A DNA stretch of 64,000 nt from an uncultured Pedosphaera sp. (GCA_965214825.1 OZ243981.1:1234567-1298566); one strand, 5' to 3'; counted from the stretch's first letter, positions 4,658 to 63,336 are shown. A program made the numbers and translations. The notes: generated by a model not told the origin, from the sequence alone.

Positions 4658-4765
4658 GGCCGGCAATGATGGGAGGAGGCAAAGCGCTCGGCAAGGGCAA
4701 AGTCGCTTTCCGGGCGCTGCTGCTGCGGGCGGGGCGGCCTTGCCCGCAGAGAAGGCGTTGGACAA

Positions 4766-5273: not shown

Positions 5274-6287
5274 ATGCCTGACGCCATGAAGAACGCTCTG
5301 AACCCAGTTTCTCCGAAGGATGCCCCCGCCTCAAACCCGCCTCGCCAAAGCCTTTGCCGCGCGTGGTCGCGCCGCGAGTTTTTGACTCTCTCCGCTGCGG
5401 CTGCGTCGGCGGCGGGTTGTGTTTCGATTCCGGGGCGGCCTGCCGCAGACGCCCGCTCGGTCAAGCTGGGGATTTCGACTTACTCTTATTGGCATTTTGA
5501 AGCCGAGAAGTATCCCATTGAGCGGGTCATTGACCACGCCGCCGAGCTGGGCGTTGAGGGCGTGGACATCCTGCATCAGCAAATGGCGGCAGAGACGCCG
5601 GCTTATCTGCAAAAGCTCAAGCGACATGCCTTCCTCAACGGCGTGGACCTCATTGCGCTTTCGATTCATCAGGACTTTGTGGACCCCGATCCCGAAGTAC
5701 GCCAAAAGCACATCGACCACACCATCCGCTGCATGGAGTTAGCGCACGCGTTGGGTGTTCCTTGCATCCGCCTCAACTCTGGCCGGTGGAACACGATTGC
5801 GTCCTTTGATGACTTGATGGCCGCTCGGGGGGTGGAGCCGATCCTTCCCGGCCGCACTGAGGCCGAGGGCTTTCAATGGTGCATTGATTGCATTGAACGC
5901 TGCTTGCCGGTGGCGGAATCGCTGGGCGTCGCCCTCGCCCTCGAAAACCATTGGGGGCTGACGCGGACGCCGGAAGGCTTGCTGCGGATTGTCAACGCCA
6001 TTGAATCGCCTTGGCTTGGCGTGCTCATGGACACCGGCAACTTTCTGGAAAACCCTTATCCGAAACTCGAAGCCATCGCTTCCGAAACTATCTTCGTGCA
6101 AGCCAAAACTTATCCCGGTGGCGGCAAATGGTACACGCTGGATTTGGATTACGTTCGCATTGCCCGCATCTTGAAAGACGCCGGCTATTCCGGCTATGTC
6201 TCGTTGGAAATGGAAGGCAAAGTGCCCGCCGCAACCGCCGTTCCGGAAAGCATTGCGATGTTGCGGGCGGCCTTCGGCAGCGTCTGA
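5274..6287 (+). CDS. Sugar phosphate isomerase/epimerase (xylose-isomerase-like TIM barrel) with a Tat-type signal
   Basis: 'SRREFLTLSAAAASAAGC' is a twin-arginine-like leader. 'ALENHWG' and 'MDTGNF' are typical of the AP-endonuclease-2/xylose-isomerase-like fold. The ORF's upstream extension (from 4953) overlaps the VOC gene and was discarded. Confidence 0.7.
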   Translation: MPDAMKNALNPVSPKDAPASNPPRQSLCRAWSRREFLTLSAAAASAAGCVSIPGRPAADARSVKLGISTYSYWHFEAEKYPIERVIDHAAELGVEGVDILHQQMAAETPAYLQKLKRHAFLNGVDLIALSIHQDFVDPDPEVRQKHIDHTIRCMELAHALGVPCIRLNSGRWNTIASFDDLMAARGVEPILPGRTEAEGFQWCIDCIERCLPVAESLGVALALENHWGLTRTPEGLLRIVNAIESPWLGVLMDTGNFLENPYPKLEAIASETIFVQAKTYPGGGKWYTLDLDYVRIARILKDAGYSGYVSLEMEGKVPAATAVPESIAMLRAAFGSV

Positions 6288-6294
6288 GCGTTTC

Positions 6295-8331
6295 ATGCCG
6301 GGAGCGAGGGACTCAAAGGGCGCTGCGGAGCGGGCGACGGCGGCTTCTATTGCCTTGGCTCAACTCCCCGGTGTGGGCAACCTGCGGGCGACGCGGCTTC
6401 AAAAACTCCGGCTGCATACCTTGGAAGACCTCTTCCTCTGCCGCCCCAAACGCTACGAAGACCGCCGAACCTTTCTCGACATTGCCCAGGCGCGTGCGGA
6501 AATGCCGGCCGTCTTCAAGGGAACGGTGCAGACGGTTATGCTCAAGCAAATCTCTCACCGCCGCCTTTCCCTGCTCGAACTCCGGCTCAGAGACGCATCG
6601 GGAGAGCTCACCTGCCGCTGGTGGAATCAACCCTATCTGGCGCGGCAATTTCAAACGGGCATGCCGCTGCTGATTTATGGCAAACCAGCGGTGGGAGAAA
6701 AAACGATCATCGACCAACCGGAAGTCGAATGGGTTTCCGGCGGCGATGACGATGCGATTCATCTGAACCGGATCGTCCCCATCTACCCCCTCACCAAAGG
6801 GGTTCAACAACGGTGGTTGCGCGTCCTGGTTTGGCAGGCTTTGGAGAACCACGCCGACTGCCTGAAGGAACGCGACTTCGGGATGCCGTTGAACTCCCCG
6901 CTCAAGCGCATCGAAGCCGTGCGCTGTCTGCACTTTCCCGACGATATGGAACAAACCCGCGCCGCCCGCCTGCACTTCGCGCGGGAAGAATTGCTCGGCT
7001 TTCAACTGGATTTGCAATCGCGCCGCTTGCGTTTCCTCCAGCGAGCCCAAGCGCCACCGTGCCGGGCCAGTGAAGGCCAGCTTCAGGTCTTCTTGCAACA
7101 ACTCCCCTTCGTGCTGACCGAGGCACAACAGCGCGTTGTCCGGGAAATTCAGCACGACTTGAGCCGCTCCGTTCCCATGCGCCGCCTGCTGCAAGGGGAT
7201 GTCGGCTCCGGCAAAACCGTTGTGGCCGCCGCTGCCGCCGTAGCCGTGATTGCCAGCGGTTATGATGTGGCCTTCATGGCGCCTACAGAGTTGTTGGCGC
7301 AACAGCATTGCCGCACTTTGAGTGACCGGTTGGCAGCTCTGCCCATTTTGCCGAGCTTGCTCATCGGCGGCGCCAAGAAAAGAACGCCACCGCCCTCGCC
7401 CGCCTTGACTGTTGGCACTCACGCCCTTTTGGAAGACGCCTATCAACCCCTCCGGCTCGGCTTGGCCATCATCGACGAACAGCACCGTTTCGGCGTGGAC
7501 CAACGCAACCGCTTGCTCCACAAAGGCCGTTACCCCCATCTCCTCACCATGACCGCCACACCCATCCCCCGCTCGCTGGGGCTCACCCTCTACGGCGAAC
7601 TGGAACATTCCATCCTCGACGAACTCCCCCCACAACGCGGCACTCTGAAAACCTACGTCCGCTCCGCCGACCGCCTGAGCCGCATCTGGGACTTTCTCCG
7701 CCAAAAACTCGGAGAAGGCCGCCAAGCATATGTGGTCTATCCCCGAATCGAAGAAGCGCCCGGCACCCTCAAATCCCTGCAATCCGAATTCCGCAAAATC
7801 GAACAAACCGTCGCGCCCTTCAAAGCCGATTGGATACACGGCCAACTCCCACGGGAAACCGCCGCCCGCGTGATGGCTGGTTTCCGCGACAACCACATCC
7901 AAGTACTCGTGGCTACCACCATGATCGAAGTGGGCGTCGATGTCCCCAACGCCACCATCATGCTCGTTGAAAACGCCGAACAATTCGGCCTGGCCCAACT
8001 CCACCAAATCCGAGGCCGAATCGGGCGCGGCGCCCGCGACTCCCACTGCATCCTCATCTCCCGCGAACAAACCGAAACCGCGCGGCAACGCCTCAAAATC
8101 CTCGAAGCCACCCGCGACGGATTCGCCATCGCCGAACACGACCTAAAACTGCGCGGCCCCGGCGAGTTCCTGGGCAAGCAACAAAGCGGCCTCCCGCAGT
8201 TCCGATTCAGCGACTTGATCCGAGACGCCCACCTGCTTCGCGAAATCCGCGCCGCCGTGCGAGCGCATCTCGGCATTGAATCTCCTCTCGAAGCCGAACC
8301 TCCCGGCGGCGAGCTCTTCGCCGGTCGTTGA
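6295..8331 (+). CDS. recG: ATP-dependent DNA helicase RecG
   Basis: 'GDVGSGKT', 'IIDEQHRFG', 'LTMTATPIPRSL' and 'LHQIRGRIGRG'. The start was placed at the internal ATG 6295, just after the upstream gene's stop. Confidence 0.9.
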   Translation: MPGARDSKGAAERATAASIALAQLPGVGNLRATRLQKLRLHTLEDLFLCRPKRYEDRRTFLDIAQARAEMPAVFKGTVQTVMLKQISHRRLSLLELRLRDASGELTCRWWNQPYLARQFQTGMPLLIYGKPAVGEKTIIDQPEVEWVSGGDDDAIHLNRIVPIYPLTKGVQQRWLRVLVWQALENHADCLKERDFGMPLNSPLKRIEAVRCLHFPDDMEQTRAARLHFAREELLGFQLDLQSRRLRFLQRAQAPPCRASEGQLQVFLQQLPFVLTEAQQRVVREIQHDLSRSVPMRRLLQGDVGSGKTVVAAAAAVAVIASGYDVAFMAPTELLAQQHCRTLSDRLAALPILPSLLIGGAKKRTPPPSPALTVGTHALLEDAYQPLRLGLAIIDEQHRFGVDQRNRLLHKGRYPHLLTMTATPIPRSLGLTLYGELEHSILDELPPQRGTLKTYVRSADRLSRIWDFLRQKLGEGRQAYVVYPRIEEAPGTLKSLQSEFRKIEQTVAPFKADWIHGQLPRETAARVMAGFRDNHIQVLVATTMIEVGVDVPNATIMLVENAEQFGLAQLHQIRGRIGRGARDSHCILISREQTETARQRLKILEATRDGFAIAEHDLKLRGPGEFLGKQQSGLPQFRFSDLIRDAHLLREIRAAVRAHLGIESPLEAEPPGGELFAGR

Positions 8332-8346
8332 CACCCTCCCGCCGCC

Positions 8347-9345
8347 TCACAGCTTCAAGCGATAAAACAACAAAGGAGCCGCCAGCGACACCAGCGCCCC
8401 GGTTACCAAGCCATGCAAATAATCCGCCAAAAGCGCCGCCGCCAAAGGCCAATCCGCCATGCCTTCCCCCCGCCACCAATGCCACCCCGTAAAGCCGTAA
8501 GGAGCAAGCAACGCCCCTCCCAGCAAAAAACGCAGTGCCCGTTCCCGCCAATCACGGGCATTGCGATCCCGCTTCAACACCACTAAAATTCGATACCCGC
8601 CAAAAAAACCAAACCCCATCCCAGCCAGCAAAAACGAAGAATGCAAACGGAACGGACGGATGGGGCCGTCCTCTGGCCGCTTCTCCAAAGCCATGGAAAC
8701 CCACTCCGCCGGCAACTCGAAATCAGCAACCCACCAACGCATCCCCGCCGCCGCCGCACATATGCTGACAGAACAAAAAAACAACGCCAGCAACTGCCTC
8801 CCCGGCGCCAACGCCAAAAAACGCGCTTTCATCCGCGCTTCCAGCCAAGAGGAAAACCGCAAAAACGCCAGCCCCAAACCGATGCCCGTCACCACCTGAG
8901 CCATCGAATGAACACCCAAATAAACCCGAGAAACCCCAACTCCCAAAAAAATCCCCCCGCACAAAACCCACAACCACCGCCGATTGGCAGAACCCAGCCG
9001 GCACAAAAGCTGCCACTGCCGCGCCAATTCCCCCCACACCGCCGCCGCCGTCAACGCATGTCCCGACGGCATCCCGAAGCCGTCCGACTTGGCAAGCCCC
9101 CGGACTTCCGGCTCCACCCAATACGGGCGGGGCATATGAAACGCCAGCTTCAAAACCCCCGCCAGCCAGGAACACGCCAAATTCGCCAACCAAACCCGGC
9201 TCATCGCTCCATAATCCCAACACCAATACAACCCGGCCAACAGCACATTCAAACCCAGCGAAGGCCCAAAATCGCTCCACCCCCGGAACAACCAATCCAG
9301 CGAAGCGCCGCTCTCCTGCAGCCAAATCGCAAACTCCGTTTCCAT
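8347..9345 (-). CDS. PAP2-family membrane phosphatase
   Basis: Acid-phosphatase motifs 'KLAFHMPRP', 'PSGHA' and 'SRVYLGVHSMAQV' within a multi-TM protein. Confidence 0.8.
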   Translation of the reverse strand: METEFAIWLQESGASLDWLFRGWSDFGPSLGLNVLLAGLYWCWDYGAMSRVWLANLACSWLAGVLKLAFHMPRPYWVEPEVRGLAKSDGFGMPSGHALTAAAVWGELARQWQLLCRLGSANRRWLWVLCGGIFLGVGVSRVYLGVHSMAQVVTGIGLGLAFLRFSSWLEARMKARFLALAPGRQLLALFFCSVSICAAAAGMRWWVADFELPAEWVSMALEKRPEDGPIRPFRLHSSFLLAGMGFGFFGGYRILVVLKRDRNARDWRERALRFLLGGALLAPYGFTGWHWWRGEGMADWPLAAALLADYLHGLVTGALVSLAAPLLFYRLKL

Positions 9346-9522: not shown

Positions 9523-10356
9523 ATGAAAGTAATCATCGATAGCCCGCTCAACGGCTCAACGGCTCAACGGCTCAACAAGGGGTTTACGCTCATTGAACTT
9601 TTGGTCGTCATCGCGATTATTGCGATTTTGGCAGGCATGCTACTCCCTGCCTTATCCAAGGCCAAAGCCAAGGCACAAGAAGTCACGTGCATGAACAACC
9701 TGAAACAGTTGGGCATCGCCTTTGCCATGTATCTCAGCGACTACGAGGACACCTTCCCCGGAGTGGCCTCGCGCGGCGCCTACAACCCGCAACGCGAGGA
9801 TTGGATTTTCTGGAACCTGAACCGCGGTGGCGCCAACGGCATGACCAAGGAGTTCATCAACGACCCCCGCAACAGCGCCATCGCTCCCTACATCGGCAGC
9901 TTCACCACCAACCTCTTTCGCTGCGCCTCTGACAAGGACTGGGAAAAACGGCGGGAAGCGCGAAGGAGTCAAGGAGATGCCAACATCTATTCCTACTCCA
10001 TGGTGAGCTACGTTCCGGGCGGCAAGAATCACGGCCCCGGTTCCATTCTAGATCCCCCGCAAGTCCGCCCTTTCAAATATACCAGCATCAAAATGCCGAC
10101 GCAGAAAATGGTCATCGTCGATGAAAACGGCGATCCGAATAACGGCATCCCCTTCATTGACGACGGCCGCTTCACACCCAACAACTGGCTCGCCGCCCGG
10201 CACCGCATCCCCCGCGGCCAAAAACCAAACAATGAAACGGATTACAAGGAACGCGGCCGGGGCAACGTATTGCTGGCAGATTGGCACGTCGAATCTTACT
10301 CCCCCGGCCAAGCCAAAGAACTCAAACACTACGACACGCAATGGACGGGAAATTAG
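9523..10356 (+). CDS. Prepilin-type N-terminal cleavage/methylation domain protein (pseudopilin-like)
   Basis: '[34 protein letters not shown]' is the class III signal/N-methylation motif. ATG at 9523. Confidence 0.85.
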
Positions 10357-53446: not shown

Positions 53447-54097
53447 TTATGCGGAAAATGTTTGCGCACGGACAAACCCATCTTCTAAGCGAAAATGACA
53501 GTCGCCCAGCCGTCGAGCTTCCTGCCGGCTGTGGGTGATGTGCAGGACGGTCACACGGGTTTGCCGGTGAATCTCCTCCAGCAGCGCGCACATCTCCGCG
53601 TGCAAATCTTCATCCAACGCACTGAGCGGTTCGTCCAAAAGAAGAACAGCAGGCTTGCTCGCCAAAGCTCTGCCAACGGCCACCCGCTGAGCTTCCCCTC
53701 CGCTGAGGCCGTCGGGCCGGCGATCCAACAGCCGGTCCACGCCTGTAAGAACAGCCAACTCCTCCACCCGGGCGGCAATCAACGGCGCTGGCAACCGACG
53801 AATCACCAAAGAAAACGCCAATTGATCGCGAACACAAAGCATGGGAAAAAGCGCGCGGTCTTGAGGCACATAACCCACGCCCCGCTCCGCCGGCTTCCGC
53901 TCAGTAACATCCCGACCCGACAATCGAATCCGGCCGGCCTCAATCGGGCGCAACCCGCAAATCGCTTCCAGCAATGTCGTCTTGCCGCAACCGCTCCGGC
54001 CCATGAGAACAGCATATTGCCCGGACTCCACCCGAAAATCGAACCCCTCAAGACAAAACGCCCCCTGCTGGATTTTGAGCTTCTGCACTTCAATCAT
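53447..54097 (-). CDS. ABC transporter ATP-binding protein (ModC-like)
   Basis: 'GRSGCGKTTLL', 'LSGGEAQRVAVGRAL' and 'LLLDEPLSALD'. The start overlaps the permease stop (ATGA). Confidence 0.8.
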   Translation of the reverse strand: MIEVQKLKIQQGAFCLEGFDFRVESGQYAVLMGRSGCGKTTLLEAICGLRPIEAGRIRLSGRDVTERKPAERGVGYVPQDRALFPMLCVRDQLAFSLVIRRLPAPLIAARVEELAVLTGVDRLLDRRPDGLSGGEAQRVAVGRALASKPAVLLLDEPLSALDEDLHAEMCALLEEIHRQTRVTVLHITHSRQEARRLGDCHFRLEDGFVRAQTFSA

Positions 54098-54999
54098 ATA
54101 TTTAACCGCTGCCGCCCCGCCAAACGAGCAATTCCCAACGCCACCGCTGCTGCCGCAACCATAATCAGAGAAACAGCAAGCATCCCCTTCAAATTGCCTG
54201 CCTGAAGCTCCAAATAAACTGAAGTCGAAAGAACTTCCGTGCGCAACCGCGTAGAGCCGGCAAAAACCAAAATCGGACCAAACTCCCCTAAAGAACGCGC
54301 CCACGCCAAAGTGCCAGCCGCCCAAAGCCCGCCCTTGGCCTGCGGCAAAACAACCGCCCAAAACGCCTGCCGCCGGCTGCAACCCAAAGTCATCGCCACC
54401 TCTTCAAACCGGATGGGAATCTGATCAAACGCAACACGCATCATTCGAACCGCAAAAGCAGCTGCCACCGTAAATTGGGCGATAATAACCGCAGGAACCT
54501 CGAAAACAACCGCCGAACTAAACCAAGCGAAAGGTGGAAGATTGAACAAAACCAACAAACTAACCCCAACAACAAGCGGCGGCAAAACAATCGGAACATC
54601 CAAAACAACATCAATAAAACCCTTCCCTCGAAATTGAAAACGAGACATCAAATAACCAATGGGCACAGACACCCAAAGAGACAACACAGCCGAGATGCTA
54701 CAACTCGCCAAACTCAAAAGAATCGAAAACCGAATTTCCTTGCTGCCAAACGCCGCCAGCAAAGACTCGCGATCCGTATAAATAACATCGGCCAAAAGCA
54801 TAAGCGCAATCACCGCAATATAAGCGCCCCCAAGCACAACCAAACAAGCGAGAAAAGGTTTGTCAGAAGGGACGCTTGGAACCTGCGCCAACGCCTCGTC
54901 AAAATCGGAAGCCCTCGCCCCTCTTTTCCCCGAAGGAGGCGCCCCAGTAGCGCCCGCGTTCTCGGATACACTAGATAGAGACTGGCGCGGCAGTTGCAC
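54094..54999 (-). CDS. ABC transporter permease (ModB/CysT-like); start uncertain
   Basis: Multi-TM protein with an EAA-like loop 'LGCSRRQAFWAVVLPQAKGG'. The first start not overlapping the res gene is GTG 54999. An ATG at 55071 would overlap res by 68 nt. Confidence 0.7.
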   Translation of the reverse strand: MQLPRQSLSSVSENAGATGAPPSGKRGARASDFDEALAQVPSVPSDKPFLACLVVLGGAYIAVIALMLLADVIYTDRESLLAAFGSKEIRFSILLSLASCSISAVLSLWVSVPIGYLMSRFQFRGKGFIDVVLDVPIVLPPLVVGVSLLVLFNLPPFAWFSSAVVFEVPAVIIAQFTVAAAFAVRMMRVAFDQIPIRFEEVAMTLGCSRRQAFWAVVLPQAKGGLWAAGTLAWARSLGEFGPILVFAGSTRLRTEVLSTSVYLELQAGNLKGMLAVSLIMVAAAAVALGIARLAGRQRLNI

Positions 55000-55003
55000 G
55001 AAC

Positions 55004-57973
55004 TCAGAGAGATTCAAAGATGCGTTCAGGCTGGTCAATATAAAAACGCCGATATTTCTCCGGCACGGCATTGCTCTTTTTATTGAACATCCAAAGCGCG
55101 ACGCGGACCGTGAATTCGCGGTATCCAAATTGGGCCAGCTCACCGTTCCCTTTTTCAAACAGGTTTTGATAACCGTCTATTTTGTGGTAGGCAGAGGTGT
55201 GCTGTGTTCCTTTGGGATCAACAAAAACAATACGATATTCATTCCCTCGACACATCCAGAAAACAAAATCGGGCAAGAAACGGCGGCATTCGTTTTTCTC
55301 GGGGTCGGAGTAGGGAATATGAATGTTGTCCCAAGATTCGTCTATCTTGCTAAACATCCAGGCATCCCATGGCACAGTATTTTTCCCAAGCCATTCTTCC
55401 AGCGCATTAAGAAAGTTGATCTCACTTGCAACCTTGATAATGTGCTGAATGTAATTTGCTTTCTCGTCTCCCAGTATCACAGGGAAATAATAGTGTTTGA
55501 GCACTTTCCTTATTTTCAGATCCATAAAAGATTTTTCGGCTCTTTCCGCCAACTTCGCATATCTCTTGCCAAACACTTCCTGCGTTATTTTTTCCTCTGC
55601 AAGTTGCCATGCTAACTCAACCATTTCCCCATTCGATGCTTTGCCTGCTTTTACCTGATCAATCTTAGTTTGCAGTTCACAGACATATTCCGAACGAACG
55701 CGAATCTCGCGGAAATGAACAATGTCTTCGTCTGCTATTTCACGAACGCCGTCTGAGACTTTTTCAATTTTCATCGTGTGGGCCAGAAGACGGTTTTGCA
55801 GAAACGGCAGCAGCGCATAGTCTTTCCCCTGTTTGATTTGTATTCCATTCTTAATCTTTTGTATTCCATTCTCAATCTTAAGTAACCCGCGCAGCGCGTT
55901 AATCTGAAACATGGCAAGCTCATCCCGAACGATATACACTGAATCAGACGTTCTTTTAAACCACGATTGCAACCTTTCCAAGGTTTCCTCGCTCATCCAG
56001 AATGGAGACGGCAAACTCGTCGGCTCTTCCCTGTATTCGGGCACTAACAGCGGCATATCTTTATTATTGATTTTAGATAACGGCGCCTTTTCAAAACCCT
56101 CCAGCCTTTCAAAGACAGCGCCCTTCTCCGCTTCCAACCCCTTCAGCACGGATTTGACGGCACTGCGATTGGTTGCAAACAGAAACAACGTTTCCGGCGG
56201 CTGCACCTTGTCGTGATAGTCTTGGATGCGCTGCTTCTCTTTGCTGTCGGCGAGGTAGGCAAAACGGCGGCGCTGATTCGGCAACGTTTCAATCCGCACG
56301 CCGCGCCCGACGGACTGCACTATAAACTTTTTGGCATCACTGCCGCCGATGTTGATGAAGTTGATCACATTGGGACGGTTGGAGTCCCAGCTTTCAAAAA
56401 ACGACCGGGAACCCATAAGGACCGTTATAGAGCTTTGTTCCAATTCGTCAAAAAACGACTTTTCCTGCAACGCGGTTGTTTCCTCAAAGCCGGCAAGAAG
56501 ATTGTTGCGCCACTTGGAAGTGTCGCCTATGCGTATCAAGGCAAACGGAGAATCTGCATTTTTCAGTTGAAACGCCAATTCCTTGTTGTCTCCACTGCGA
56601 ATAAGCTGTAACGCTCCTTTTTTACGGCTGAGAAAAACCGCCTCTCGTAAATCGGCCGTTGTCATTTTCTTAATGGGAGTTTCATCGGTTTCGATAATTC
56701 CCCCGCTGTCTTCTCTAAAAAGAAGCCTCGCATTTCTCCAATCATCAATCAGTTCAGTTTTTGAGTCTCTAAAAAGCGCGGTATCAATTGCTCCCGTGGC
56801 AACTTCACGCAAGGTTTGGAAAAACGCCCACAGATCGTTTCTTTCATTTTCAACGTCAGTATTTACAGAATTGACCAAGGTCAGCATGAGTGGCAAGTGA
56901 TACAAATCTCCGATTTGCGTCCCTTCCCGTAGCTCTTTTACTCGTAACGAAACATAGCCAAATGTGATTAACGATTTCATGACAATTTTTCTTCTTTCTT
57001 CATGGCTCATTTCTTTCCCCCTGTGGCGGAAGGCATCGTATTCCTGCTCGTTCAGAAAAATGTTTTTGCCATGCCCATTGATAACAAACTCCTCCAGATT
57101 GTATTTTTTGACCGTCGTTATAATGTCTTCTTTATCCGTAAAAGTAGCGGAAAAGTTAAACAAAAACCCCTCCCGCGCCATCACCGCGTAATACGCCTGC
57201 CGCTTGGAGTCCTCTTTACCGCCCTTATGCGCCTCGTCAAGCAACACGTACCATTTTCCGCAGTTTTCATAAGTGCGGTAGTTGGTCAGCGTGTCTTTCT
57301 GTACATCGGAAATGTTATCACTGCGGTGGTAGTAAACCGTCGCCATATCGCCAATTCTCGCCTGACGGCTGCGGTGCATTTCACGCAGCGGAACCAAATC
57401 TATATAAAGCCCCGTCTGATTGAATTCCTCCACGGTACGGCGGATTTGACCTAACAGATGCTCGCTGGGCGCAAGGATGAGGATGTTATGCGGCGGAATT
57501 TCCCGATGGCGTATCAAGTGGTGCAAGTACTCTATCAGCTTGACCATCACCAGTGTCTTGCCGCTGCCGGTCGCCATCCAGAAGCACATGCGGTTGATCA
57601 GGTTATGATAGGAAATGGTATCATCAAAAGGCGTTATATAGTCCGAAAGGATACGAAATACCGGATTCTCATCGCCATTTCTTCGGCTATTCCGGCTCTC
57701 ATATTGATTTACATTGGCAATTCCGTGGGTGTCATACAGGTCGAAGAAATACCGTTTACGTTCGTTGTTTGTCGCCTGTGGCTCACCGATGCTCCAGTCG
57801 TGTTCCTTGCCATAATACAGAAACAGCGCCCGCGCTGCTTTTTGCAAAGCGTCGGTTTGGTAATCGTACAGCGTCTTTGTGGTGGAAAAATTACCTATAT
57901 CCGGGACACGCCAAGTTTCGGGCAGATCGCCGTAGTTCAGGGATTGAGCAATGGATTCAAGTGATAGATGCAT
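55004..57973 (-). CDS. res: Type III restriction Res-like SF2 helicase with a C-terminal PD-(D/E)xK nuclease-like domain
   Basis: Motif I 'WMATGSGKTLVM', motif II 'LLDEAHKGG', motif III 'FSATF' and motif VI 'QSVGRGVRIE'. The C-terminus has 'FLPDFVFW...YRIVFVDPKGT'. Confidence 0.8.
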   Translation of the reverse strand: MHLSLESIAQSLNYGDLPETWRVPDIGNFSTTKTLYDYQTDALQKAARALFLYYGKEHDWSIGEPQATNNERKRYFFDLYDTHGIANVNQYESRNSRRNGDENPVFRILSDYITPFDDTISYHNLINRMCFWMATGSGKTLVMVKLIEYLHHLIRHREIPPHNILILAPSEHLLGQIRRTVEEFNQTGLYIDLVPLREMHRSRQARIGDMATVYYHRSDNISDVQKDTLTNYRTYENCGKWYVLLDEAHKGGKEDSKRQAYYAVMAREGFLFNFSATFTDKEDIITTVKKYNLEEFVINGHGKNIFLNEQEYDAFRHRGKEMSHEERRKIVMKSLITFGYVSLRVKELREGTQIGDLYHLPLMLTLVNSVNTDVENERNDLWAFFQTLREVATGAIDTALFRDSKTELIDDWRNARLLFREDSGGIIETDETPIKKMTTADLREAVFLSRKKGALQLIRSGDNKELAFQLKNADSPFALIRIGDTSKWRNNLLAGFEETTALQEKSFFDELEQSSITVLMGSRSFFESWDSNRPNVINFINIGGSDAKKFIVQSVGRGVRIETLPNQRRRFAYLADSKEKQRIQDYHDKVQPPETLFLFATNRSAVKSVLKGLEAEKGAVFERLEGFEKAPLSKINNKDMPLLVPEYREEPTSLPSPFWMSEETLERLQSWFKRTSDSVYIVRDELAMFQINALRGLLKIENGIQKIKNGIQIKQGKDYALLPFLQNRLLAHTMKIEKVSDGVREIADEDIVHFREIRVRSEYVCELQTKIDQVKAGKASNGEMVELAWQLAEEKITQEVFGKRYAKLAERAEKSFMDLKIRKVLKHYYFPVILGDEKANYIQHIIKVASEINFLNALEEWLGKNTVPWDAWMFSKIDESWDNIHIPYSDPEKNECRRFLPDFVFWMCRGNEYRIVFVDPKGTQHTSAYHKIDGYQNLFEKGNGELAQFGYREFTVRVALWMFNKKSNAVPEKYRRFYIDQPERIFESL

Positions 57974-57988
57974 GGATTAGCTATAGAC

Positions 57989-58489
57989 TCAATGGTTATT
58001 TCTTATGGTAATAGCTTCCTCTACAGCGCCGGCTAAATTCTTCTTAATCCAATCGTACCGCTCCTGACTGTTGTGGCCAGCAGGATCATAACATTTGACG
58101 ACCGACAAGAGTTTCTCACCGAAATTTCCACAAGAAATATCGAAAGGGTTTTTACCCTTAGAAGAAATACTTTCATACTGGTCTTTTAGTCCGTGTATGT
58201 ATATTCCGACCACGCCCATACCTTCATTTCGTGACTTTCTTATTTCATAATTGATCCATTTTCTATTTGCTGTATTGCTGCCAACGAGGACGACGGTGCA
58301 TGACCTGTACTTCATTTGGTTATCTATCCATTTTTTAATCGCAGTATCACCACCTTTTTTAACTGCTTCCCATTCGTTATCAGTTGCTGGCCTATTACCT
58401 TCAACAACACCCATGTTGCGTACTTGCGAGACTCGCCAACTATCTTGATCGTAGTGAAAACTGTAAAAGACTCGTCTTTTTGTCGCCAT
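57989..58489 (-). CDS. ThsB-like TIR-domain protein (DUF1863 type)
   Basis: 'RRVFYSFHYDQDSWRVSQVRN', 'TVVLVGSNTANRKWINYEIRKS' and 'GIYIHGLKD...SKGKNPFD' closely follow the Thoeris ThsB pattern as I recall it. Confidence 0.75.
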   Translation of the reverse strand: MATKRRVFYSFHYDQDSWRVSQVRNMGVVEGNRPATDNEWEAVKKGGDTAIKKWIDNQMKYRSCTVVLVGSNTANRKWINYEIRKSRNEGMGVVGIYIHGLKDQYESISSKGKNPFDISCGNFGEKLLSVVKCYDPAGHNSQERYDWIKKNLAGAVEEAITIRNNH

Positions 58490-58543
58490 ATTCGTTTTTC
58501 TATCTCCTCATTCGTTCTGCTCTTACTTTACTTAATTGTAAAT

Positions 58544-58954
58544 TTAAGAATAACAAAAGATCCATCCCAACACAAATAAAGCCTGAATGCCATAAAATAA
58601 GAGCAATGTTACGGAAAACATGGAAGCAAACCAGTTACACTTTGGTTGGCTTTTGTGTTTCATCATATCCATTGCAAAATCCGTGGCTCCTTGCTCTCTA
58701 ATCTCATCGTAACCTTTACGAAACAATCGCTCTTGCCAAAGAAAATAAACGTCCAATACCCAAAACCCAACTACTGGAATGAGAAAAGACAATACGATAT
58801 ATTCGTTTCCGATCCCGCTTCTTGCAGAAAAGATGATTCCAGCAGCCAATATGGTTATGCTCCAACCTTTGATCAAGAAAGAGTCATGCCCCAGACGGTT
58901 AATAACCCCCTGAATCATTTCCAAGTGCTTCACGATTTGTTCTTTATTATGCAT
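58544..58954 (-). CDS. Small 3-TM membrane protein of unknown function
   Basis: 136 aa with an amphipathic N-terminus 'IVKHLEMIQGVINRLGHDSFLIKGW'. Hydrophobic segments are 'SITILAAGIIFSA', 'YIVLSFLIPVVGFWVLDVYFLW' and 'VTLLLFYGIQALFVLGWIF', with a ~40-aa charged loop. Confidence 0.6.
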   Translation of the reverse strand: MHNKEQIVKHLEMIQGVINRLGHDSFLIKGWSITILAAGIIFSARSGIGNEYIVLSFLIPVVGFWVLDVYFLWQERLFRKGYDEIREQGATDFAMDMMKHKSQPKCNWFASMFSVTLLLFYGIQALFVLGWIFCYS

Positions 58955-58966
58955 TGCAACACCTCT

Positions 58967-59632
58967 TTAAGCTTTCACCGTCTTTGTGATTTTGTAATCA
59001 TCTATCTTCTCTCTTATATTCTCTGCTATTTGAATATACTTTTCTTTGTCATTTATAAAATCCTGCCATGTAACCGAGTAAATATAGCTAGGATCACCTG
59101 TATAAACAGGATTCTTTGGGTGATTTCTACAATTGCTAAAGGTAGGTTCCTTTATGTTAAACATATTGTCTCGCAATATCTGAAAGAGAGTGTCGGTTTT
59201 TAGTGTTTTACAATGACAGTATGGACAGGAATCTTCCACAAGAAAGTATTGGTAAGAGGAGTTTCTGTCGGGCAGAACGACTGCTAACACTGCATTTGTT
59301 TTGCTAGTACGCCCATCCCGTGTGATTTCCTTGAAGGAATAAGAAACCTCCCATGGAATCCACTGATTGCCTTCGTTAATACTCGTGTCTTTCATATTGG
59401 GCGAAATTAAGACAATAGTGATACTGCTGTCATATATTTTGTCCTTCAGATGAGTTTTTATCGTCTCGTCTTCAAACTCTTCTAAATCTTCATCACCTTC
59501 TCCTTTATAAATCTCATCTCCCTCAAATAAATCAATTAGCTTATCAACATAATCCCTGGCTGTGCTTTCTCCATTCAATGCTTCCACATTTCTATCACTG
59601 TGCTTATAAGAAACAAATATTTTTCTAGCCAT
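58967..59632 (-). CDS. Second, divergent ThsB-like TIR-domain protein
   Basis: '[11 protein letters not shown]', '[12 protein letters not shown]', '[11 protein letters not shown]' and '[10 protein letters not shown]' (DUF1863/TIR-like pattern), with an extra Cys-containing C-terminal region 'CPYCHC'. Confidence 0.65.
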
Positions 59633-59647
59633 TTTAGTATTCTGCTT

Positions 59648-62416
59648 TTACTCCCCCCACCACAGATACGATTTGATAAGTGAGATGAAGTGCCGTTTTT
59701 CTTCTTCGGTCATGGTTGCCGGGTCGGTTTTCTCGGTGGTGCCGTCGGCGAAGGTTACGCTGTCGGCGGTGCGGCGACGGATCGGTTTGCCGAGCGCATT
59801 GGACAGCGTCTCGGCAATGTCGATGTCCTGGTAGTCCCGGTAGAGGTCGTGGAGATTGATTTTCAGTTTGCCGTTTTTCAGCGGTTTGACCGCGCCCGCG
59901 AGTTTGTCGTCGCCGAAGAAAACATACTGCTCAAAGGGCGATTTTGTGCTGTCCAGCTCCAGTGAAGTGACTCGCCGTCCGCTATCATAGCGGGCTTCTT
60001 TGAGCGTCTCTTCGTACTGCTCCAGTTTGTAGTATTTGAGGCAATGGCTGACGCCTTCACGGGAGACAGGTTTGCCGTTTTTCCAGTCTTTGGAATAGAC
60101 CACTTTTTTGATGCGCGGTAGAAGAACGGTGTCGAAGTAGTCTCCCATTTCGATCATCAAGTATTTGCGATTGCCGCCGTCTTCGCGATTGAGATTGATA
60201 ACGGCGTGAGCAGTGGTGCCGGAGCCGGCGAAGTAGTCTACTGCTACTGCGTTTCTTTTGTTGCAGCCGGATGTTGTTAAACAATCTTCGACTAATGCTA
60301 CGGATTTCGGAAAATTGAATAAACTCTCTCCAAAGAGATCTTTTAGAACTTTTGCCCCGTGGTTGGATGATGCGTATTTGTTATCATCCCACCAAGTCTT
60401 GGGCATCGCACTCTCGTCCATCCGAATGCGGAAATCTATACTTATACTCCCATTCTTACCTCGGCGAATGCGATACTCGTCTGGTTCAGATTGAACGCGT
60501 TCCCATCCGCGATGCCAGTTTTTCTCGATTTCACCTCTGATGGGCCAAAGAACGACTTCATCTGAATTGGGTTTTTCCTGAACCCGATACTCGCGGTTAT
60601 CTTCACGCCACTCCAGTTCAGGAATTCGGATGGTGTCGTCCTCTTTGACATAAATTGGATAAAACATCTTCGGTGCATCTTCTCTTTTGTCATTTGAACC
60701 ATGCCGAATCAAATTGTTCCAGGCATATCTTCCCTGACTGTCCGCAAATGGATAACGCGCACGTTCCTTGTCGGTCTTTGGTAGGCTGGACGGTACAGCG
60801 TCCTTATTACCAAAGAACAAGGCGTATTCGTGAGATGGCGAAAACTGTCCCGTGGATTTTCTTCCAGCAGGATTCGTCCGCACAGGAACCACGCCCAATT
60901 TTCGGTCAAAAACTCTTTGCAATAGGTCAAATAAACGCCAAGACTCTTCATCATCAATAGCACAACAAATAATTCCTTCGCTGCCCAGAAACGCTTTTGA
61001 TATTGTTAGTCGATTTTCTACCAATGAAAGCCATGACGAATCTTTATAATCGTTTCTATACAAAATGGCTGAAGAATCGGTGTTATACGGTGGATCGATA
61101 TAAATACATTTAACCTTCCCCCTGTACCTCTCCCGCAAAGTATTCAATGCCTGCCAGTTCTCGCTGTGCACCAGTTCGCCGTCCAGCGCTTCGTCCAGAT
61201 TCCCTAACGCAGCGAGAATCTCCAATTTCATATCTTTGAAATATCCGGTGTCCAGCGGCAGAAACTTATAGTCGCCGTTTGCGCCGCCGTTGGTATCGGC
61301 CAGGTTTTGCTGCCCGGCGCCGAGCGCATCCATTGAAAATTGGTCATCCACCATGCCGAGCTCGCGCCACTCCTTGATTTGCGTCCGCGCGCCTTTGTGT
61401 TGGCGCACCTTTTGTAGCGTCTCGGCGTTCAATTTATCCAGCGTAACGACATAGTTGACATTGCGGACGAATTTCGGCTTTTCCCAGGCGCGGCGCAGCT
61501 CATCCTCGAACTGGGCTATGAAGTGGATGATGTCGTAGGCGGTTTCCTTGAGCGCCTGCAACTGTTTGATGCGCTTTTGTTCGAAGACGGTCTCTTCCTG
61601 AAACAGGTATTGGTACATCCACAGATCAAACTGCTCGCGCAGAAAGCCTTTGGCGTCCTTATTGATAAAGTAATCAACTTCCGTCTGACGGCGGAACACG
61701 CCGAGCGCTTTTTGGAGTTGGTCATCGGTCAGTGAGATGCCGCCCCGGCGGGCCTCTTTGAGGATGGCGGCGGTCTTCGTTTTCGTACCGCCGCGCGCGT
61801 AGGCGACTTTCAGATGGATTACCCGCCCTTCGGCCGTTTTTTTAACTTCGTCAAAGTCAAACACGAATTCACGCCGTTCGTTGTTCTGCTTGTGCTCCAC
61901 CTCGGAAGCGTCAAAATAGAAACGCCTTGTTTTTTGCGGTTTGCCTTCCTCGTTCAGCTCGACCGGCATGGAGCGCACTAACGCATCCGATTTGACATAA
62001 TAGAGCATCTGCGTTTTCCACGACAACGCGACGTCCTGACCGTCTGCATAGACCTGCTGATAGGTTTTGGAGAAGGCCGGCAGGTGGCGGAAGTAGATGG
62101 AGCCGCTTTCGCAGAAGTAACGCCTGAAGAAGGTGTACAGCTTGTCGAACAGCTCCTCACGGAAGGCGGTTTGCGGTTTGGCGCGTTGATCAATCGCGGC
62201 CATCAGTTGCGGCTTGATGGATTGGAAGTAGTGCTGTTTGATCCACATCAGGTTGACGAAGCCGGAGTGTTTACCGTCCACCTCGGCACCGGTGAACAGC
62301 GCTTCCAGCTCGTCCAAAAAACGCTTTTCCTTTCTGCCGCCGTTCATCTTTCCGCCTTGCGATGTGCGGCGGTTGTGTTTTGGCCTGATAGCTTGCTTGT
62401 GCGACACTGTTTGCAT
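59648..62416 (-). CDS. mod: Type III Mod-like DNA methyltransferase (beta-class N6A/N4C)
   Basis: Motif IV 'CIYIDPPYNT' precedes motif I 'VAVDYFAGSGTTAHAV'. At 922 aa it has a large N-terminal region. An alternative ATG lies at 62347. Confidence 0.8.
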   Translation of the reverse strand: MQTVSHKQAIRPKHNRRTSQGGKMNGGRKEKRFLDELEALFTGAEVDGKHSGFVNLMWIKQHYFQSIKPQLMAAIDQRAKPQTAFREELFDKLYTFFRRYFCESGSIYFRHLPAFSKTYQQVYADGQDVALSWKTQMLYYVKSDALVRSMPVELNEEGKPQKTRRFYFDASEVEHKQNNERREFVFDFDEVKKTAEGRVIHLKVAYARGGTKTKTAAILKEARRGGISLTDDQLQKALGVFRRQTEVDYFINKDAKGFLREQFDLWMYQYLFQEETVFEQKRIKQLQALKETAYDIIHFIAQFEDELRRAWEKPKFVRNVNYVVTLDKLNAETLQKVRQHKGARTQIKEWRELGMVDDQFSMDALGAGQQNLADTNGGANGDYKFLPLDTGYFKDMKLEILAALGNLDEALDGELVHSENWQALNTLRERYRGKVKCIYIDPPYNTDSSAILYRNDYKDSSWLSLVENRLTISKAFLGSEGIICCAIDDEESWRLFDLLQRVFDRKLGVVPVRTNPAGRKSTGQFSPSHEYALFFGNKDAVPSSLPKTDKERARYPFADSQGRYAWNNLIRHGSNDKREDAPKMFYPIYVKEDDTIRIPELEWREDNREYRVQEKPNSDEVVLWPIRGEIEKNWHRGWERVQSEPDEYRIRRGKNGSISIDFRIRMDESAMPKTWWDDNKYASSNHGAKVLKDLFGESLFNFPKSVALVEDCLTTSGCNKRNAVAVDYFAGSGTTAHAVINLNREDGGNRKYLMIEMGDYFDTVLLPRIKKVVYSKDWKNGKPVSREGVSHCLKYYKLEQYEETLKEARYDSGRRVTSLELDSTKSPFEQYVFFGDDKLAGAVKPLKNGKLKINLHDLYRDYQDIDIAETLSNALGKPIRRRTADSVTFADGTTEKTDPATMTEEEKRHFISLIKSYLWWGE

Positions 62417-62466: not shown

Positions 62467-63336
62467 TCAGGGTTTGGCGGGAAAGGTGTCGAAGTGGAAT
62501 TTTTGGAAGAGGAGTTTACCTTTTTTCGACGTGGCAAGGTAGCGAGCAAAGCGCCGGGCGGCTTCTGCTTTTTGAGTGTGGGCAGTGATGTGGGCGGCGA
62601 TGACGGCGATTCCGTCGGCGAGTTCAGGGCATTCGACAATACGAAGTCCGAATTGTTTTGCTGTGGCGTCCCATATGAAAGCGGCGCGAATGTGCTTTGA
62701 AGTTTTCACGGCGTTGGCAGCTTCTGGCACTCGCAGGAAGGCGGCTTTTTTGTTTTGCAAGACGGGTTGCCAGAGGCCGTGCTGTTTGAGGGCTGTTTTG
62801 ATTCGCCGTCCGGCGCCGGCTTGTTGGTTGCAGAGGGCGTAGGGATGGGCTTGGTCCAGCAGGTCTCGGACGGATTGAATGCGAAGAGGGGAATCCGGTT
62901 TGAGCGCCAAAACAATTCGGAACCGGGCAAGAGGAATGGATTCTTGGGTTAGCCCTTTGCTTTGAGCGCGGTTGCCGAAGAAGGGATCCGCAGGGATATA
63001 GAGGTCGCAGCGCGAAAGGCCGGTTTTTTTTTCCAGAGCGATTTTGTTTTCAAGTTCGCCGCTGGAGCCGTAGTTCAAGCGAATGACAACACCGCGTTCT
63101 TTTTGGTAGAGTCTGGCGGCGGCTTCAACCGGCTTTCTTATACCCGCCGCGCAATAGATTACCAAGCTGAATTGAGCGGCGCCAAGTTTAGCGGTCATCC
63201 GGTGCAAGAAAGTAATGAGCGCCAAGACAAGGAAAGCCGAGACCAGCGCCAAGATGATACCGTTCAAGGCAAACCGGCGGCGAAGATAGTTTTTTGCGGT
63301 CATATAAAGCGCAGCTTGCAGTCTTATTTCGGGCAA
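62467..63336 (-). CDS. ModA-like (molybdate/tungstate-type) periplasmic substrate-binding protein with an N-terminal anchor
   Basis: TM anchor 'GIILALVSAFLVLALITF', then 'LVIYCAAGIRKPVEAAARLY...LNYGSSGEL...DLYIPAD...AAFIWDATA', typical of type-II PBPs of the ModA group. Confidence 0.65.
   Translation of the reverse strand: MPEIRLQAALYMTAKNYLRRRFALNGIILALVSAFLVLALITFLHRMTAKLGAAQFSLVIYCAAGIRKPVEAAARLYQKERGVVIRLNYGSSGELENKIALEKKTGLSRCDLYIPADPFFGNRAQSKGLTQESIPLARFRIVLALKPDSPLRIQSVRDLLDQAHPYALCNQQAGAGRRIKTALKQHGLWQPVLQNKKAAFLRVPEAANAVKTSKHIRAAFIWDATAKQFGLRIVECPELADGIAVIAAHITAHTQKAEAARRFARYLATSKKGKLLFQKFHFDTFPAKP

Follow-up and report, generated by a model that had tools for sequence, protein, structure and literature searches.

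We analysed a 64,000-nucleotide stretch of DNA from an uncultured Pedosphaera sp. (GCA_965214825.1 OZ243981.1:1234567-1298566; the whole stretch is henceforth referred to as the window), which contains a run of five co-directional genes on the minus strand (positions 55004-62416) encoding, in order, a DNA methyltransferase (Mod), a 221-aa TIR protein (TIR-221), a 136-aa protein with three transmembrane (TM) segments (TM-136), a 166-aa TIR protein (TIR-166) and a helicase with a nuclease-type motif (Res). These genes probably make up two nested and independent defence systems: a Type III-like restriction-modification (R-M) system on the outside and, carried as cargo between its two genes, a self-sufficient cassette that resembles Thoeris type V. 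Given that related systems fill the same slot with many other defence genes, we read the locus as an example of the known pattern of embedded defence and not as a new composite system. That the two layers work independently of each other is suggested by sequence comparison.

All five open reading frames (ORFs) are intact: Mod (59648-62416, 922 aa), TIR-221 (58967-59632), TM-136 (58544-58954), TIR-166 (57989-58489) and Res (55004-57973, 989 aa). Computed from these coordinates, the spacers in the direction from Mod to Res measure 15, 12, 54 and 15 nt; the TM gene is 12 nt away from one TIR gene and 54 nt away from the other, and the cargo separates Mod from Res by 1.67 kb. A preliminary description of the region had reported the same five ORFs with the same gaps and had named their products as Mod, a TIR protein, a three-TM protein, a ThsB-like TIR protein and Res. 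The positions were confirmed, and both profile matches and motifs agree with these identities.

Both TIR proteins are of the ThsB type. TIR-221 was matched over its full length by the PADLOC ThsB model (PDLC00428, 5e-83) and more weakly by Pfam ThsB_TIR (3e-6). Among solved structures it matched PDB entry 9VYL (3e-82, aa 1-219, about 65% identity), named a ‘putative cyclic ADP-D-ribose synthase TIR1’, which, going by the naming, would be a B. dafuensis protein. The catalytic-type glutamate of TIR-221 lies in the motif WIPWE (aa 91-95) and is conserved with TIR1. TIR-166 was matched by Pfam ThsB_TIR (2e-28) and by the PADLOC models ThsB (1e-69) and PDC-M50B (3e-64), and its structural matches were PDB 8wcf (4e-41) and B. 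cereus ThsB (9b7d and 6lhy, 9e-26); its catalytic-glutamate motif aligns with that of B. cereus ThsB (RKWINYEI vs. RRWVRYEI), with WINYE at aa 78-82. The two proteins are thus probably the first and the second of two predicted infection sensors and signal synthases. We also observed a CxxCxC motif (CPYCHC; 59210-59227, aa 136-141) in the C-terminal extension of TIR-221, which is kept in the solved homologue 9VYL and in relatives from the type V survey discussed below, and which could be a metal-binding or sensor element.

Two ThsB proteins with one effector have a precedent in the type I Thoeris system of B. dafuensis, where two unrelated ThsBs in one locus have additive phage ranges and one shared signal (Ofir et al. 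2021). The window likewise has two unrelated ThsB TIR proteins and a single effector candidate, but the B. dafuensis effector is a SIR2-SLOG ThsA that acts by NAD+ depletion, whereas the candidate here is a small membrane protein.

TM-136 is hydrophobic in three stretches, roughly aa 26-44, 52-72 and 112-134, and an AlphaFold2 model of the monomer consists of three long helices at moderate confidence (pLDDT 69, pTM 0.53). It was matched by PADLOC PDC-M50A at 1e-37 and belongs to a large family, with 881 matches in a search of 5.8 billion proteins, 511 loci in species-representative genomes and, at the level of the superfamily reached with the family profile, 4703 clusters at 50% identity. PDC-M50 belongs to a set of 145 candidate systems, all untested, that were predicted because such cassettes occur inside other defence systems (Payne et al. 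2024, bioRxiv 10.1101/2024.01.29.577857). In the window its two components (PDC-M50A, i.e., TM-136, and PDC-M50B, i.e., TIR-166) are adjacent genes in the same order, A then B, and they are again embedded, as the candidate itself was when it was found. There are two differences: the window adds an upstream ThsB (TIR-221), and its host system is Type III-like, whereas the hosts mined in the source study were Hma, BREX, DISARM and Type I R-M.

The cassette can further be compared with Thoeris type V, a validated system composed of a ThsB TIR protein and ThsF, a small three-TM effector annotated as DUF2270. ThsF is activated by 3'cADPR, an isomer of cyclic ADP-ribose (cADPR), and has been modelled as a channel-like homo-heptamer, for which a ring with positively charged pockets between the protomers is reported, and the validated systems give protection as operons of just two genes standing by themselves (Yirmiya et al. 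2025, bioRxiv 10.64898/2025.12.03.692087). In Table S1 of that study we found near-identical signatures for both window proteins, among them 2595431376 and 2627254940 (cluster 2661146773) for TIR-166 and 2501732538 (cluster 2742576382) for TIR-221, and all are labelled ‘DUF2270 - Type V’. Pairs of gene identifiers n and n+2 in the same table imply a TIR-effector-TIR order, which is also the order in the window. A separate ‘3TM’ effector class in Table S1 was considered as a home for TM-136 and rejected, as it is tied to another TIR clade (‘SHSWxYS...’, clusters 2734565194 and 2556961318).

Because the effector labels in Table S1 are representative-based and, according to the authors, noisy (Yirmiya et al. 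2025), we sought independent evidence for type V. When the validated type V ThsB of B. thuringiensis DAR 81934 and TM-136 were searched against annotated plasmids with tblastn, they matched the same records at adjacent positions (e.g., NZ_CP023318, NZ_CP008877 and NZ_AP022022), with 40-53% identity for the ThsB homologues and 37-46% for the TM-136 homologues, and the genus breakdown of the two sets of plasmid matches was identical. On Klebsiella and Escherichia plasmids, the TIR and TM genes occur alone as a two-gene unit. Pairs of this kind are common on plasmids of enterobacteria; they were seen on one such plasmid locus (L167; NZ_AP022022.1 60636-61815), where the pair is close to a DNA methylase gene and umuDC, and on about 80 other Klebsiella/Escherichia plasmids, many of them conjugative.

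In sum, both the cassette and Thoeris type V combine ThsB gene(s) with an adjoining small three-TM protein and lack any other effector; type V is also the label of the TIR clades to which the two window proteins belong, and homologues of TM-136 adjoin homologues of the validated B. thuringiensis ThsB. The two differ in that TM-136 has no Pfam DUF2270 match (a minority of its divergent relatives match weakly), and in that the window system is nested in an R-M operon. Context and architecture therefore support the view that the cassette is a Thoeris type V-like system, equivalent to PDC-M50 plus one extra ThsB, and that TM-136 is probably a ThsF-like membrane effector; we chose the name ‘type V-like’ because context and architecture agree with type V, while matches to the Pfam family (DUF2270) occur in divergent relatives of TM-136 and are weak. 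The proposal in the preliminary description that the small TM protein acts as effector for the TIR proteins gains support from the type V ThsB partners and the three helices. The PADLOC search that it had recommended returned, among other models, PDC-M50A, PDC-M50B, ThsB and MTase_III. Its view of the arrangement as undescribed is not supported, since the TM and TIR genes correspond to PADLOC PDC-M50, the TIR clades are listed as Thoeris type V and embedding itself is known (Payne et al. 2024).

The cassette is autonomous. We carried out a census anchored on the TM gene, in which the window’s five proteins were searched with tblastn against the 80 closest TM genomic loci, mostly from metagenome-assembled genomes (MAGs) of sponge symbionts. 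Mod or Res was present within 10 kb of the TM gene at only 3 of these loci and absent from the other 77. Its usual neighbours were TIR genes, one resembling TIR-221 on the upstream side, one resembling TIR-166 on the downstream side, or the two together, and five loci (L008, L035, L056, L058 and L079) carried the three genes TIR221-TM-TIR166 by themselves. The closest TM, Mod and Res relatives (L001-L080) are concentrated in MAGs from lineages that we take to be sponge symbionts (Poribacteria, Binatia, Nitrospirales, Latescibacterota and Ca. Spongiihabitans), and some genomes hold several TM copies (e.g., L072-L074 all come from one genome).

Of the outer pair, Mod was matched by Pfam N6_N4_Mtase (1e-21) and, across aa 28-886, by PADLOC MTase_III (PDLC03638, 4e-192), and its motif order (DPPY at aa 441-444, then FAGSG at aa 729-733) is that of a beta-class N6-adenine methyltransferase. 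Its nearest solved structures are Type III Mods, namely Mbo45V (7dsu, 6e-31), 6k0w and the Mod of EcoP15I (4zcf, 1e-15). Res has the motifs of a superfamily 2 (SF2) helicase/ATPase (GSGKT at 136-140, DEAH at 246-249; Pfam ResIII 1e-15, DEAD 2e-8) and a C-terminal PD-(D/E)xK-type motif (PD(x16)DPK, 901-921), which is invariant across 18 homologues and by which the nuclease is recognised at motif level. PADLOC REase_III matched it at only 3e-21 and over the helicase core only (aa 125-281), and a search of the Res family profile against PDB sequences gave no chain at E<=0.01, though EcoP15I (4zcf) was in the library. As its homologues carry a precomputed YagJ domain (PF27151), Res is a member of the YagJ-domain family and not close to the canonical Res of EcoP15I. 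Within the Res gene, a 21-nt tandem duplication (55837-55878, 95% identical) gives an in-frame repeat of seven residues (…IENGIQK IKNGIQI…), situated where the protein is variable.

Compared with the Type III R-M systems EcoP15I and EcoP1I, the outer pair thus agrees in having mod upstream of res on one strand, a beta-class Mod (DPPY before FxGxG) whose nearest solved structures are Type III Mods, and a Res that combines the motifs of an SF2 helicase with PD-(D/E)xK at its C terminus. By contrast, Mod has an N-terminal extension of about 400 aa, Res has no detectable sequence match to EcoP15I Res outside the helicase core, and in the window’s clade cargo parts mod from res. Type III enzymes cut in an ATP-dependent manner, for which Mod and a pair of unmethylated sites in inverse orientation are needed. 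We use the label ‘Type III-like’ because full-length homology of Res to canonical, EcoP15I-like Type III Res was not found. DISARM, BREX and Dnd-type systems were considered and rejected: their signature genes are absent, and the matches of PbeA and dnd_restrict to Res are weak and limited to the helicase core.

To describe what lies between Mod and Res in this family, we surveyed loci anchored on Res, taken from the closest homologues (58-71% identity) and from 80 more distant relatives (about 40% identity) from metagenomes; Res homologues as a whole number more than 5,600 proteins at E<=1e-3. Of the 73 loci that were scorable, 41 have Mod and Res adjacent, and the other 32 carry inserts of 0.4-8 kb that are diverse and co-oriented. 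Most distant relatives have Mod directly before Res. Every one of the close relatives examined has an insert, and the inserted genes differ: DUF4145 (PD-T7-4) in L081/L082; DUF4145 with an AAA_15 (HEC-02/AriA-like) pair in L084; a CAP12-type TIR protein (PDC-S35), an AAA_15 pair, Schlafen/AlbA and a ParA-like protein in L083; ImmA/IrrE-HTH and a small protein in L085; a PtuA-like (Septu-like) ATPase followed by TIR221-TM-TIR-TIR166, an ImmA-like and a ParA-like gene in L001; and the TM gene only in L002. Schlafen/AlbA-HATPase proteins occur among the inserts at 11 loci, and further inserts include PDC-S06 (AAA_13), PDC-S13 (Bro-N), Ppl-like PHP-ABC ATPases and a Hachiman-like PDC-M23 pair. The slot can also hold whole known systems: in L130 (6808-9760) it contains a short prokaryotic Argonaute (pAgo_II, 3e-203) together with an Aga-SIR2 that is split, and in L155 (800-3851) a complete Type II R-M system with SoFic. 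The Mod|Res junction is, in other words, a general cargo slot, whose variable content consists of established or candidate defence genes.

Hma, BREX, DISARM and Type I R-M are the host systems for which embedded defence genes have been described, and the precedents of PrrC in EcoprrI and BrxU in BREX are summarised in the same study (Payne et al. 2024). The pattern (i.e., nested, co-oriented and varying cargo) holds at the window’s family, whose host type lies outside the four surveyed. PrrC in EcoprrI (hsdMS-prrC-hsdR) and BrxU in BREX resemble the window in that a second defence module is nested, co-oriented, inside a modification-based system. PrrC is different in being almost exclusive to Type I R-M and physically regulated by that system, whereas a cassette of the window’s type usually occurs on its own, and many other cargos can take its slot. 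With 77 of 80 cassette loci lacking Mod/Res, and unrelated cargos or none at the junction, the suggestion of the preliminary description that the locus is a composite system coupling restriction to TIR signalling is not borne out. It had also named an outcome that would point to a simple insertion of a Thoeris fragment, namely close homologues of Mod and Res always adjacent elsewhere and the cassette independent beside a ThsA gene. The results largely agree with that outcome: Mod and Res are adjacent in most of the more distant homologues, and the cassette does occur independently. There was no ThsA, presumably because the effector is the TM protein.

How the cargo may have been exchanged is suggested by base composition and by repeats at the 3' end of mod. 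The GC content of the cassette is 0.36-0.41 both in the window (host about 0.57) and in L001 (host 0.57-0.61), and that of Mod and Res has moved towards each host (window, 0.51 and 0.47; L001, 0.52 and 0.59). Window positions 59732-58542, which cover the last ~85 nt of Mod, TIR-221 and TM, are co-linear with L001 9213-10409, and the junction between the Mod stop and the TIR-221 start is homologous in the window, in L001 and in a remnant locus, L009. The last ~84 nt of Mod (59648-59731, minus strand) are present as a single copy in the window, and a homologous segment is duplicated at cargo boundaries in related loci. Specifically, L001 has a direct repeat of the Mod 3' end (84 nt, 95%; 7249-7332 and 9214-9297) that brackets the PtuA-like gene; L130 has a second copy (84 nt, 92%; about 6720-6806 and about 9826-9909) after pAgo and SIR2 and just before Res; and L083 has a decayed one (43 nt, 88%; about 4700-4763 and about 5716-5758). 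In three independent loci with unrelated cargo, then, a duplicated mod 3' end marks the boundary of a cargo module.

Together with the low GC of the cassette, these duplicated ends indicate that recombination took place at Mod's conserved 3' end and brought in the cargo, be it through ordinary homologous exchange or through a dedicated site, and the last ~84 nt of mod are the likely anchor for this exchange. It is conceivable, although rather doubtful, that the mod 3' end is a dedicated capture site at which cassettes are gained and stacked somewhat in the manner of an integron, each leaving a second mod 3' copy, with cargo that might be selected to fire when the R-M system is neutralised; if so, the Type III-like Mod/YagJ-Res family, which is widespread, would have been overlooked as a carrier that mobilises itself and bears second-line defences which can be swapped for one another. 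Two related loci have incomplete forms of the arrangement. In L009 (9394-10393), the first ~6 codons of TIR-221 are fused into a 5'-truncated TM gene, by which we recognise a deletion remnant, and there is no Res within 10 kb. L002 (7221-13394) reads Mod-TM-Res and lacks the TIR genes; its Res is spread across three frames, which could be a long-read assembly error or real decay.

Several points weigh against our reading of two independent systems with a type V-like cassette inside, besides the noise in the Table S1 labels. TM-136 did not match the Pfam model of DUF2270 (PF10028, 184 positions) even at E<=10, and neither its close homologues nor its plasmid homologues matched it. DUF2270 was the commonest weak Pfam match among divergent members of the TM superfamily, but such matches were few and weak or borderline (15 of 75, best E 1.4e-05, equal to about 25 bits when extrapolated from the score of member P0308 and set against a curated cut-off of 25). 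P0308 scored 16.5 bits, a weak match that is co-linear over about 85 residues; none of its 111 relatives was annotated as DUF2270, and no bona fide PF10028 protein was reached. TM-136 itself was therefore not assigned to Pfam DUF2270, and its equation with ThsF is not proven at the sequence level because the DUF2270 matches are absent or weak. In addition, among the 80 closest TM homologues, 36 lie more than 2.5 kb from any TIR gene, hence the TM family is not strictly linked to TIR genes. Finally, all close Mod/Res relatives examined (58-71% identity) have cargo of some sort, and about 4 of the 8 distinct loci have this very cassette or its remnant, so that the pairing of the cassette with Mod/Res may bring some functional benefit.

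The orphan TM homologues (L006, L007, L011, L013, L014, L017 and about 30 others) lie in heterogeneous, partly housekeeping neighbourhoods. Their number and unrelated surroundings, the Mod-TM-Res order of L002 with no TIR gene, the DUF2270 results and the caution of Yirmiya et al. that TIR could be the effector in unverified configurations would all fit a different role for TM-136, in which the TIR proteins deplete NAD+ as effectors and the TM protein serves as sensor or anchor, or in which the TM protein acts independently of TIR. We nevertheless consider this unlikely: characterised members of the ThsB clade make a cADPR isomer that activates ThsA and are not effectors themselves, homologues of TM-136 are partners of homologues of the validated type V ThsB, and a protein of 136 aa made up almost wholly of three helices leaves little space for a sensor domain.

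Another explanation would wire the cassette to its host, as a back-up comparable to PrrC in EcoprrI, with a ThsB sensing either the inactivation of Mod/Res by a phage anti-restriction protein or the products of restriction, and then triggering the membrane effector. The tight, co-directional embedding, the Mod-stop/TIR-221 junction kept in three lineages, the retention of some cargo in all close Mod/Res relatives and the PrrC/EcoprrI and BrxU/BREX precedents (Payne et al.) can be cited for such a guard. Yet the cassette mostly occurs without Mod/Res, including as two-gene plasmid units, the cargo at the junction is highly heterogeneous, validated type V systems protect as stand-alone two-gene operons, and common descent with horizontal transfer accounts for the shared junction; taken together, this makes functional coupling quite improbable. 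We think it more improbable still that the island is decaying or silent (i.e., an accidental insertion of cargo with a polar effect on res, or inactive genes), given that, despite signs of decay in relatives (the L009 remnant, the Res of L002 in three frames, the degenerate Mod 3' copy of L083), all five ORFs of the window are full length relative to their families (Mod aligned over aa 15-922, Res over aa 1-989, every invariant motif included, both TIR proteins and TM complete) and each inner gene is preceded by a plausible ribosome-binding site of its own.

The five genes are probably co-transcribed, as their tight, co-directional spacing makes plausible. Consensus scans of the region for promoters and terminators gave matches at the level of shuffled sequence and are uninformative on operon structure; the terminator scan found no terminator-like site inside the spacers of the five genes, and one transcription unit is compatible with these scans. 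The 7.4-kb island interrupts an ATP-binding cassette (ABC) transporter operon of the same orientation. On one side lies the solute-binding-protein gene (62467-63336, minus strand; Pfam SBP_bac_11, 5e-36), which ends 50 nt before the ATG of Mod and has a GC content of 0.54, compared with 0.36-0.51 for the island genes. Downstream of Res are the permease and ATPase genes (53447-54999, minus strand; Pfam BPD_transp_1 3e-17, ABC_tran 2e-31), and the permease ORF has an in-frame GTG 4 nt past the Res stop codon. Because the island splits the operon and this GTG follows so closely, the permease and ATPase genes may depend on read-through out of the island. A search for repeats or att-like sites at the island borders gave just short repeats at chance level.

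Under the favoured reading of two nested systems, defence would proceed in two steps. Mod would methylate the host DNA, and Res together with Mod would cut unmodified incoming DNA. If a phage got past restriction, either of the two dissimilar ThsBs would sense the infection and turn NAD+ into a cyclic ADP-ribose isomer, most likely 3'cADPR; an oligomer of TM-136 would then bind this signal and breach the membrane, and the infection would be aborted. With two ThsBs, a broader set of phages would be recognised, and the tight, co-directional spacing would make co-transcription probable and assure co-transfer.

Taken at face value, the locus looked like a new immune class that links restriction to TIR signalling; that reading is replaced here by two known frameworks, embedded defence and the expanded Thoeris family. 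Two points are modestly new: a host family of the Type III-like kind serves as a cargo slot, and second copies of the mod 3' end appear as footprints of exchange, the latter a physical clue to how cargo is swapped. The embedding approach is thereby carried over to a family of Type III-like Mod/Res pairs whose Res is hardly picked up by the standard models, and the Mod|Res junction of this family offers rich ground for mining new defence genes. Finally, linking PDC-M50, with its thousands of clusters, to Thoeris type V would provide a concrete mechanism for a very common small membrane protein.

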